Source of the DNA: Escherichia coli
GTDB lineage: Bacteria > Pseudomonadota > Gammaproteobacteria > Enterobacterales > Enterobacteriaceae
DNA: 426 bases
Direction: 5' to 3' (one strand)
NCBI RefSeq assembly: GCF_003334255.1
Contig: NZ_QOWU01000244.1
Part shown: positions 1 through 426 of the stretch, one piece after another
How the letters are laid out: every line of letters starts with the position of its first letter
Position numbering within the stretch: the first letter of the stretch is position 1
Notes under the pieces: generated by a model
Told to the model about the DNA's origin: nothing
The model's database searches: none
The model's input: the letters and a program-made list of their open reading frames with translations, nothing else
Translations under genes and position numbers: made by a program

Positions 1-27
1 GCGCATCCGGCAGGACCGCCATCAGGC
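1..27. repeat. Possible partial REP (repetitive extragenic palindromic) element immediately 3' of the CDS, truncated by the window edge
   Basis: Seen in sequence: the reverse complement of 1..27 is GCCTGATGGCGGTCCTGCCGGATGCGC. It contains GCCGGATGCG and GCCTGATG, both resembling the conserved 5' portion of enterobacterial REP units (consensus recalled from memory as approximately GCC(G/T)GATGCG(G/A)CG…). Only a half-site is visible, and the second motif overlaps the stop codon, so this is weak. Confidence 0.25.
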
Positions 28-426
28 ACCAACAAGCCGTCTGACGCTCACACCATACAGCCCGTTTTTCGCCATTCCCGTATACAGAAAGGTATTCACC
101 GTCTTCGTGTGGATACCCATTTCACTGGCAAGGCGGCAGGGTCTCGACTGGCGGTAGACATAACCGAACATCACCACCATCTCTGACATCGTCAGCGGGC
201 GGGCAGCACTGTTATACGTCCAGACGCCGTTGTGTATGGCATCACTTATCTGCTCACCATCACGGAGCAACTCCGCATCCAGTTGCAGAAAATGACGCCC
301 CTGGAACATACAGCGCATCAGCCTGCCCAGCAGGCCATCACTGATTATCAGCCAGGATTCGTCAAAGTCCGGGATATAACGGCGGTTCTCCGGCAGGAAA
401 AACTCCCTCGCCAGTATCACACTGTG
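22..426 (-). CDS. Hypothetical protein, putative small DNA-binding regulator with a C-terminal helix-turn-helix-like motif; likely 5'-partial (N-terminus may lie beyond position 426)
   Basis: Seen in sequence: an uninterrupted minus-strand frame of 134 codons ending at the TGA stop (plus-strand 22..24, tca). The ORF track starts at GTG 418..420, but the two in-frame codons upstream (421..426, reverse complement CAC AGT = His-Ser) are also open, so the true start may be outside the window. No Shine-Dalgarno can be assessed because only 6 nt lie upstream of the GTG. An open frame of this length is unlikely by chance at this GC content. No plus-strand ORF of comparable length is reported. Product assignment rests only on a C-terminal motif read by eye, not on a database search. 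Confidence 0.7.
   Translation of the reverse strand, partial: HSVILAREFFLPENRRYIPDFDESWLIISDGLLGRLMRCMFQGRHFLQLDAELLRDGEQISDAIHNGVWTYNSAARPLTMSEMVVMFGYVYRQSRPCRLASEMGIHTKTVNTFLYTGMAKNGLYGVSVRRLVGA
25..195 (-). other. Putative C-terminal helix-turn-helix DNA-binding region (residues ~L76 to A132 of the track ORF); family unresolved (LuxR/GerE-like, sigma-70 region 4-like, or Mor/C-type phage activator-like)
   Basis: Seen in sequence: LTMSEMVVM-FGYVYRQSRPC-RLASEMGIHTKTVNTFLYTG-MAKNGLYGVSVRRLVGA. The pattern hydrophobic-A-x-x-x-G-(I/V)-x-x-x-T-V-x-x-(F/L) is the classic helix-turn-glycine-recognition-helix arrangement. A leading L-T-x-x-E-x-x-V and a ~57-residue length ending at the C-terminus match the general layout of LuxR/GerE-type or sigma-70 region 4-type HTH domains (established knowledge). 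Inference only; no profile search was possible. Confidence 0.35.

Follow-up and report, generated by a model that had tools for sequence, protein, structure and literature searches.

A lambdoid-prophage cargo gene downstream of eib, enriched in rare codons and probably encoding a LuxR-type regulator

Results

The locus and its gene

The subject of this study is a 426-nucleotide stretch of Escherichia coli DNA (contig NZ_QOWU01000244.1, assembly GCF_003334255.1), referred to below in its whole length as the window. It holds one long open reading frame (ORF), which lies on the minus strand, is open at the upper end of the window and belongs to orf-156, a prophage gene linked to the adhesin gene eib. 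The last 134 codons and the stop of orf-156 occupy positions 22..426 (minus strand), as follows from the ORF list, the translation, database matches and substitution rates; the frame, read from 426 down to 22, closes with a TGA at 22-24. The window matches the genome NZ_CM142927.1, that of the best-matching strain UCPROB-002, at 99.8%, and the coding sequence is annotated there as WP_021565060.1. In that genome orf-156 has 156 codons; its ATG is situated 66 nt past window position 426, with a putative ribosome-binding site (RBS), AGGAAGG, upstream. The original prediction, which was made from the letters of the window, had counted a GTG at 418-420 as codon 1, and this proved to be an internal codon. 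The product falls into PHROG 6585 (E = 1.4e-83), whose function label is unknown. Because the ratio of nonsynonymous to synonymous substitution rates (dN/dS) among homologues is 0.13-0.20, orf-156 is, judging from its substitution pattern, a real coding gene under purifying selection.

Rare codons of orf-156

The rare codons that had drawn attention to this ORF are present at the positions given for them. ATA encodes four of the seven isoleucines in the window (415-417, 346-348, 247-249 and 235-237), the remaining three being ATC, and the 13 arginine codons comprise two AGG (406-408 and 322-324), two AGA (142-144 and 40-42), one CGG (37-39), five CGC and three CGT. In the full 156-codon gene these numbers become 4/8 for ATA and 5/15 for AGA or AGG (AGR). 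Rare codons recur among homologues at four sites, all read on the minus strand like the rest of the gene: Ile26 (415..417), with ATA in 7/9 representative homologues; Arg29 (406..408), with AGG or AGA in 7/8 representatives having Arg at this site; Ile49 (346..348), within a conserved WLIISD strand, with ATA in 6/8 representatives having Ile; and Arg57 (322..324), with AGG or AGA in 6/8 having Arg. The others turn over, often by exchange of AAG (Lys) and AGG (Arg). Thus, the two ATA codons of Ile82 (247-249) and Ile86 (235-237), spanning 235..249, lie in a variable segment in which Ile is not conserved in the family, and the AGA of Arg117 (142..144) is replaced by Lys (AAG) or CGT in other lineages. 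The AGA-CGG pair of Arg151-Arg152 (37..42) is placed by the reading frame near the C-terminus.

Codon statistics were obtained against three sets of genes: a chromosomal background of 193 mechanically called ORFs (~250 kb) from the best-matching strain and K-12, 55 ORFs of the prophage in which orf-156 itself resides, and 20 ORFs for ribosomal proteins, elongation factors (EF), RpoA and SecY of K-12, from which the weights of the codon adaptation index (CAI) were taken. The chromosomal background is conservative, since AT-rich islands and a few shadow ORFs were included; ATA makes up 0.109 of its Ile codons and AGR 0.093 of its Arg codons, compared with 0.4% and 1.5%, respectively, in the ribosomal-protein/EF set. 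Against the chromosomal ORFs, the probability of at least four ATA among the eight Ile codons of the full gene is 6.8e-3, and that of at least five AGR among the 15 Arg codons is 9.6e-3. The combined probability of at least nine rare codons amounts to 2e-4 against the chromosomal ORFs and to 9e-3 against the ORFs of the same prophage, with respect to which the AGR excess taken separately is not significant (P = 0.13). If genome-wide K-12 values (ATA 0.07, AGR 0.06) are used, the combined probability drops to ~5e-6.

The density of rare codons in orf-156, 5.8 per 100, corresponds to the 97.9th percentile of chromosomal ORFs and to the 98.2nd percentile of the 55 prophage ORFs, and the ORFs exceeding it are mostly AT-rich island genes of GC 0.30-0.35. 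The CAI of 0.338 (ribosomal-protein/EF reference) is at the 15.5th percentile, the mean per-codon log-likelihood under background usage at the 32nd, the GC content of 0.537 at the 71st, and the GC content of third codon positions (GC3), 0.66, at the 94th, that is, on the high side. The proposal that codon usage of this gene is atypical was therefore upheld for the density of ATA and AGR (~98th percentile) but not for the CAI, codon log-likelihood and GC content, which are inside the host distribution. The rare-codon excess is confirmed as a genuine but narrow signal, unlikely to be a product of chance. Since the other measures are unremarkable, codon usage alone is insufficient to call the gene accessory, and it is the genomic context and the distribution that are decisive in this respect.

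Prophage setting and distribution

In UCPROB-002, orf-156 is found in the late tail-fibre/cargo region of a ~63-kb, 933W-like lambdoid prophage inserted at argW, a common phage attachment site. From the integrase, which adjoins tRNA-Arg(CCU), the genes run through the early region, Q, lysis, terminase, portal and N4-gp56-type capsid to the tail fibres, the cargo and a giant LPD38 protein, and yfdC marks the other boundary; the flanking genes are thus phage- and integrase-associated, as had been anticipated. The tRNA-Arg(CCU) of the attachment site (stretch L002 5017-5091) reads AGG, one of the codons enriched in orf-156, which is probably coincidental.

Presence of the gene varies among strains. 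Of 5426 complete E. coli genomes, 49 have near-identical copies, defined as a place covering at least 80% of the window, and full-length matches of the window on E. coli chromosomes are 93.9-99.8% identical among the best 25 records. A more sensitive search revealed some homologue in 437/5426 genomes and, in 185, coverage of at least 80%; a carrier genome has 1-7 copies. Hardly represented outside E. coli, the family amounts to 44 clusters when grouped at 90% identity and to 37 at 50% identity among 1.84 billion representatives. The view of orf-156 as an accessory, prophage-borne and horizontally mobile gene is therefore borne out by the integrase-to-yfdC context and the 185/5426 distribution, and not by its codon usage.

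When phage records were searched with tblastn, ORF-156 matched ORF-156A/C/D at 98-99% and ORF-156E at 68%; these come from the prophages P-EibA/C/D/E of strain ECOR-9 (AF151091, AF151674-AF151676; Sandt and Hill 2000). Both the gene and its position, right after eib and before orf-60, are the same, with no difference in substance, and the deposited P-Eib records give no function for it. The same search detected orf-156 in PhiR5_2, GER2, PhiR12_x, 2B8 and phages encoding Shiga toxin (Stx) 1a, and decayed fragments in Stx2a phages.

Linkage to eib

The Eib and EibG adhesins make commensal and Shiga-toxin-producing E. coli serum-resistant and enable them to bind immunoglobulins and to adhere in a chain-like pattern. 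The neighbourhood of orf-156 was surveyed in 50 IMG/VR loci, with neighbours labelled by BLASTP. A gene for an Eib-type trimeric autotransporter (Eib identity 46-100%) stood immediately upstream in 21/21 loci that have a full-length homologue of 156-175 aa and upstream sequence available. In the best-matching strain (stretch L001), eib (12581-13663) and orf-156 (12022-12492) are on the same strand with a ~90-nt spacer, and the order there, as in P-EibA, is tail fibre, tail-fibre assembly, eib, orf-156, orf-60; further tail and cargo genes or the eaaA autotransporter gene lie beyond. Small ORFs in the tfa-eib spacer, considered as partner genes, look spurious.

A subgroup with a 180-aa product (12 loci, L035-L046; L010 4001-4543), 67% identical and of GC3 0.45, has no eib. 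It is preceded by stf/tfa, with fragments of tail-fibre assembly genes, and followed by the type III secretion effector genes nleG/espM2 in lambda-like prophages such as 2B8, and blastn found no eib remnant upstream of it. Another 15 loci, from Stx phages (L047-L061; L011 3971-4393), contain fragments of orf-156 only. The frameshifted or truncated remnants in Stx2a phages (PA28, ArgO145, P27 and others) lack eib, are sometimes situated beside an IS3 element, and give the impression that the cassette has decayed in that lineage.

For more distant homologues (31-46% identity), the gene directly upstream encodes an Eib-like anchor or an RTX-type secreted protein, the anchor in the case of the 46%-identical one. 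A place immediately behind a surface- or secreted-protein gene is thus a consistent feature of the family. These distant members are on contigs of 39-48% GC (L066 2195-3208; L063 1252-3678; L067 2-1237), with an RTX/HemolysinCabind or Eib-like anchor gene upstream. On L066 the next gene after the homologue encodes a true GerE protein of 169 aa whose N-terminus is similar (MKVICDNRYFLIGI), an arrangement that suggests tandem paralogues.

Expression signals

The ~90-nt spacer between eib and orf-156 is conserved in all lineages and includes a hairpin (GGCAGGC...GCCTGCC) with a T-run behind it. The hairpin is located on the minus strand of L001 at 12531-12560, just outside the window, and the same spacer is found in L012-L033. 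Because stem and T-run are conserved throughout the lineages and the loop is not, the hairpin fits an intrinsic terminator. No sigma-70-like promoter was recognised between this putative terminator and orf-156, and the eib-orf156 region gave no Rfam match at E<=0.1. With a conserved terminator upstream and no recognisable promoter, we infer that orf-156 would be transcribed only by read-through from eib or as part of the Q-antiterminated late transcript, and hence weakly.

Oxygen, temperature and static as opposed to shaken growth were reported to influence expression of Eib and EibG (PMC4352079; PMC5450701). In an alignment of nine loci, strong conservation upstream of eib was limited to the ~40 nt that precede the ATG (L001 13664-13700, minus strand), the rest of the region being divergent. 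The conserved sequence reads TTTGTATACA(G/A)AT(A/C)ATTT..AGG(G/A)TATACC and includes two short palindromes ~21 bp apart (TTTGTATACA...GGTATACC); the second becomes GGATATCC or GATATATC in other lineages, where it is still palindromic. These palindromes could be operators or simply parts of the promoter or RBS.

Persistence of the codon bias

ATA, AGA and AGG together number 4.0-6.4 per 100 codons in each of 23 distinct homologue sequences. Between the reference gene (that of the window) and lineages of 67-71% identity, synonymous divergence (dS) is 1.3-1.9, which means saturation, and it is to this comparison that the dN/dS values given above apply. The four-fold degenerate sites of the gene itself served as a neutral guide for codon choice. 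In seven lineages, the expected share of AGR among Arg codons was 0.37-0.42 and the observed share 0.18-0.38 (33% in the reference gene), so that the expectation was never exceeded. ATA was above the neutral expectation in one of the seven lineages only, the reference one (P = 0.001). As for composition, four-fold sites carry 50-62% G in six of seven lineages and 38% in the 180-aa lineage, a marked NNG preference, and A makes up only 3% of them in the reference lineage. No phage-borne tRNA gene was found in the host prophage, and none is annotated in the 14-46 kb region of PhiR5_2; the idea that tRNAs for rare codons (ileZ/argN/argO, as in 933W) carried by the phage offset the bias was rejected on these grounds.

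Protein fold

Two domains may be discerned in the product. The window encodes part of an N-terminal alpha/beta domain that would be a pseudo-receiver (residues 23-~95, positions 208..426, minus strand), including the WLIISD strand and D52, and a predicted C-terminal helix-turn-helix (HTH) of LuxR/GerE type (residues 100-145, LTMSEMVVMFGY...KTVNTFLYTGMAKNGL, positions 58..195, minus strand), the most conserved part in the family. The AlphaFold2 model built on the family alignment (predicted local distance difference test, pLDDT, 79; predicted template modelling score, pTM, 0.73) consists of four strand-helix units and then four helices (102-112, 118-125, 129-142 and 150-154), so that the predicted structure has the four-helix bundle of this family, with the HTH at helices 2-3. 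Foldseek comparison of the model with the PDB returned NarL/FixJ regulators (EvgA, FixJ, RcsB, VpsT, StyR, NarL) as the top 13 matches, with E values of 4e-3 to 2e-2 and probability up to 0.98.

Profile comparisons point in the same direction. A profile including distant members matched, among PDB sequences, GerE (1fse, E = 5e-4) and VraR (0.011), as well as VqmA and EvgA, and the profile of the closer family matched LuxR-type chains only (E ~0.08). The ORF-156 query itself gave no Pfam or NCBIfam match; distant members, two of them at E<=0.001, matched Pfam GerE (PF00196; best 2.3e-6), with Sigma70_r4_2 at 6.8e-6, and had sub-threshold NCBIfam matches to BglJ, EcpR, NarL, EvgA and FimZ. With hhalign, BglJ was matched at E = 1.2e-4 and the neighbouring GerE protein at 9e-5. 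Invariant or nearly invariant residues cluster in the HTH, within KTVNTFLY..KNG, the putative recognition helix. The receiver-like domain has T7-R8-N9 after beta1 and no acidic pair, a conserved D52 after strand 3, only four predicted strands, and no beta5/Lys segment.

The downstream gene

The start of orf-60 (MAVLPDA...) occupies window positions 1..22 on the minus strand, with the ATG at 22..20, in agreement with the GenBank entries ORF-60A and ORF-60C. It shares one base with the stop of orf-156 (TGATG), which is consistent with translational coupling of the two genes. The 60-codon orf-60 (MAVLPDAQNLLIVQKVQMMNKERCRTIGRKRYTTGAMCFMLFVWLGGVLALVATAAVVMQ; L001 11840-12024) encodes a small protein with a C-terminal hydrophobic helix and has 5 rare codons per 100. 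ORF-60A is annotated in AF151091 from the stop of ORF-156A, and ORF-60C in PhiR5_2; a 43-aa form starting at an internal ATG outside the window is the PGAP call, and PHROG 9340 covers residues 18-60 only.

Discussion

Origin of the rare-codon excess

orf-156 is a 156-codon cargo ('moron') gene of lambdoid E. coli prophages, and the data taken as a whole make it probable that its rare codons stem from weak expression and that it encodes a regulator. According to the proposed mechanism, the gene would circulate in the phage accessory gene pool and be expressed at a very low level, as its transcription would depend on read-through of the terminator or on the late transcript antiterminated by Q. 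Owing to such weak expression, selection against rare codons would be essentially absent, and ATA, AGA and AGG could accumulate. In the reference gene, AGR takes the share of Arg codons (33%) that choice free of selection would give it. Since homologues retain the rare-codon density although their synonymous sites are saturated, the simplest reading of the bias is that of a stable, long-term trait of a weakly expressed phage gene. The suggestion that the gene was acquired recently is thus not implied by its codons, the same density persisting at dS 1.3-1.9.

One might ask whether the excess is merely a fluctuation in a short ORF. The sample is indeed small (8 Ile and 15 Arg codons, with single-codon probabilities of ~0.007-0.01), and the AGR test against prophage genes was not significant; nevertheless, the combined probability against chromosomal ORFs and the recurrence of the same density in all 23 homologue sequences, which span 67-100% protein identity, make chance a scarcely credible explanation. 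An unameliorated signature of recent transfer from a donor species of different composition would agree with a density in the tail of the host distribution, with the lack of the gene in >90% of E. coli genomes, and with the contigs of 39-48% GC that bear the distant homologues and are probably not from E. coli. It seems quite improbable, though, because the GC and GC3 of orf-156 are at or above the host mean, whereas ORFs comparably rich in rare codons are mostly far poorer in GC, and because its CAI and overall codon likelihood are inside the host range. Moreover, the trait has been stable over a synonymous divergence too long for an unameliorated signature, among homologues that are all in E. 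coli phages, and the clusters of the family are nearly confined to this species. An AT-rich donor in particular was rejected in view of the GC3 value.

A more elaborate possibility is that the rare codons were selected as a translational throttle, tying synthesis of ORF-156 to scarce tRNAs (ileX/ileY, argU, argW) and thereby coupling the regulator, and hence Eib, to the growth phase. Analogous arrangements are fimU tRNA for fimY in Salmonella and bldA for TTA codons in Streptomyces. Such a role could account for the retention of rare codons despite saturation of synonymous sites, for the recurrence of ATA at Ile26 and Ile49 and of AGR at Arg29 and Arg57 in several lineages, and for a density above that of 98% of ORFs in the same prophage. 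It would also agree with the use of ATA for half of the Ile codons in the reference lineage, where A is so scarce at four-fold sites, and with condition-dependent expression of Eib (PMC4352079). On the other hand, AGR surpasses the neutral expectation in no lineage, six of the seven lineages have no ATA excess, and many of the rare codons turn over or come from Lys/Arg exchange rather than being fixed in position. The cassette is unaccompanied by phage tRNA genes in the two prophage regions inspected, and positional retention is seen in two or three independent lineages only, which is statistically indistinguishable from shared ancestry. We regard both the throttle itself and the coupling to growth phase that would follow from it as unlikely.

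Several observations weigh against the explanation by weak expression of a prophage-borne regulator gene. The codon background consists of only ~250 kb of mechanically called ORFs, and the low expression of orf-156 is a deduction from the terminator and the codon usage. The ATA excess of the reference lineage is left unexplained if selection on codon choice is simply absent. The 180-aa subgroup persists at 12 loci without eib, beside nleG/espM2. A search of the literature, including full texts, for 'orf-156' together with eib found no function or target of ORF-156. Finally, Sandt, Hopper and Hill are said to have observed in 2002 that K-12 lysogens of whole eib prophages make little Eib unless ibrAB is supplied, which argues against ORF-156 as a sufficient activator of eib.

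Possible function of ORF-156

The original prediction had guessed at an accessory-region regulator, and the profile and predicted-fold evidence for a LuxR/GerE-type HTH speaks for this guess, so that ORF-156 is probably a regulator. That it is an orphan LuxR/GerE-type DNA-binding protein with a truncated, non-phosphorylatable receiver-like domain is moderately supported by the model and the profiles. The NarL/FixJ response regulators (EvgA, RcsB, NarL, FixJ, VpsT, DevR) are its best structural matches across both domains and, like them, ORF-156 keeps an Asp (D52) at the end of strand 3, the phospho-acceptor position. Unlike them, it has T-R-N in place of the Mg-binding acidic pair and lacks alpha4-beta5-alpha5; no histidine kinase gene is found near orf-156 in any examined context. 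As the acidic pair, a part of the receiver and a nearby kinase are all missing, ORF-156 is not a canonical response regulator. It is reminiscent of GadE, DctR/YhiF, BglJ, YjjQ and EcpR/MatA, orphan LuxR/GerE regulators with a non-phosphorylatable N-terminal domain. In common with these, it has no partner kinase and is encoded in a horizontally acquired region beside genes for surface structures or stress, and its N-terminal motif, hydrophobic-x4-T-(R/K)-(D/N)-x-(Y/F)-x3-G, aligns weakly with 'IFLMTKDSFLLQGF' of GadE and 'LIITRDTMFFTAM' of DctR. The similarity, however, is sub-threshold for every curated model, and ORF-156 differs in being shorter (156 aa versus 175-225), in having only four predicted N-terminal strands, and in being phage-borne. 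ORF-156 is also distinct from known prophage-encoded regulators. RgdR (ECs1581), which lies elsewhere, on CP-933C-like prophages, and with which identity was rejected, has 99 aa, an RGD motif at residues 20-22 and no reported similarity to known proteins (PMC3378721), whereas ORF-156 has 156 aa and no RGD motif; Psr/PatE are AraC-type regulators.

It is conceivable that ORF-156 is not a transcription factor at all but, for instance, a protein-protein adaptor, a factor that acts on RNA polymerase in the manner of an anti-sigma factor or of sigma region 4, or a participant in Eib biogenesis together with orf-60. The query has no Pfam or NCBIfam match, in distant members the models of sigma-70 region 4 and of GerE obtain similar scores, the overlap of its stop with the start of a small membrane protein gene suggests a two-protein unit, and strict linkage to a gene for a secreted or surface protein would suit a biogenesis role equally well. 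We consider a function of this kind rather doubtful, for it is complete NarL/FixJ regulators, with both domains, that the fold matches best, the most conserved residues are in the putative recognition helix KTVNTFLY, and the ORF-156 sequence shows neither a signal peptide nor a membrane segment. Furthermore, trimeric autotransporters (type Vc secretion) are not known to need a dedicated cytoplasmic accessory protein. A role in anti-phage defence was rejected, as no PADLOC family matches ORF-156 or ORF-60.

If ORF-156 is indeed a DNA-binding regulator, it might, speculatively, bind as a dimer and modulate adjacent genes for surface proteins and cargo, eib in the first place. The further step, that it is a cis-encoded regulator of Eib-type adhesins, and of effector cargo in the 180-aa subgroup devoid of eib, is a tentative one to which we attach little likelihood. 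In such a scheme, trace synthesis of ORF-156 would be set by read-through of the terminator and by the supply of rare tRNAs, and the conserved GTATAC-type palindromes near the -10 region and RBS of eib would be its operators. A feedback or growth-state switch of this sort could explain why Eib and EibG are made when cultures are static or stationary and not when they are shaken.

The present work identifies the gene in the window as the eib-linked orf-156 and its product as likely of LuxR type; the family, for which neither Pfam nor NCBIfam has a model, has gone without annotation since 2000. Being nearly always linked to eib and LuxR-like, ORF-156 is an obvious candidate for a part in the poorly understood regulation of Eib. 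For genome scanning, it follows that a local excess of ATA, AGA and AGG can rightly flag phage cargo despite normal CAI and GC content, and that a bias of this kind can mark a weakly expressed phage gene over long periods rather than testify to recent transfer.

As a cargo gene, orf-156 resembles other lambdoid morons (lom, bor, the nleG/espM loci) in its position among or after the tail-fibre genes of the late operon, its variable presence, its linkage to virulence-type cargo and its bracketing by terminators. Classic morons have their own promoter, whereas orf-156 shows none and sits behind the eib terminator. The eib gene itself is mosaic in composition (L001 12581-13663), the 5' 600 nt having a GC content of 0.355 and the 3' anchor part 0.536, which fits shuffling of passenger domains by recombination onto a conserved anchor-terminator-orf156 module. 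Other cargo of the same prophage (L001 1-7770; L002 27241-33950) includes two Hok/Gef toxins and RelE/HigA and HicAB pairs, together with a cluster of HsdM/HsdS fragments, a SASA-family esterase, an Ail/Lom protein, a small 'bacteriocin' and an 8.4-kb gene with an LPD38 domain.

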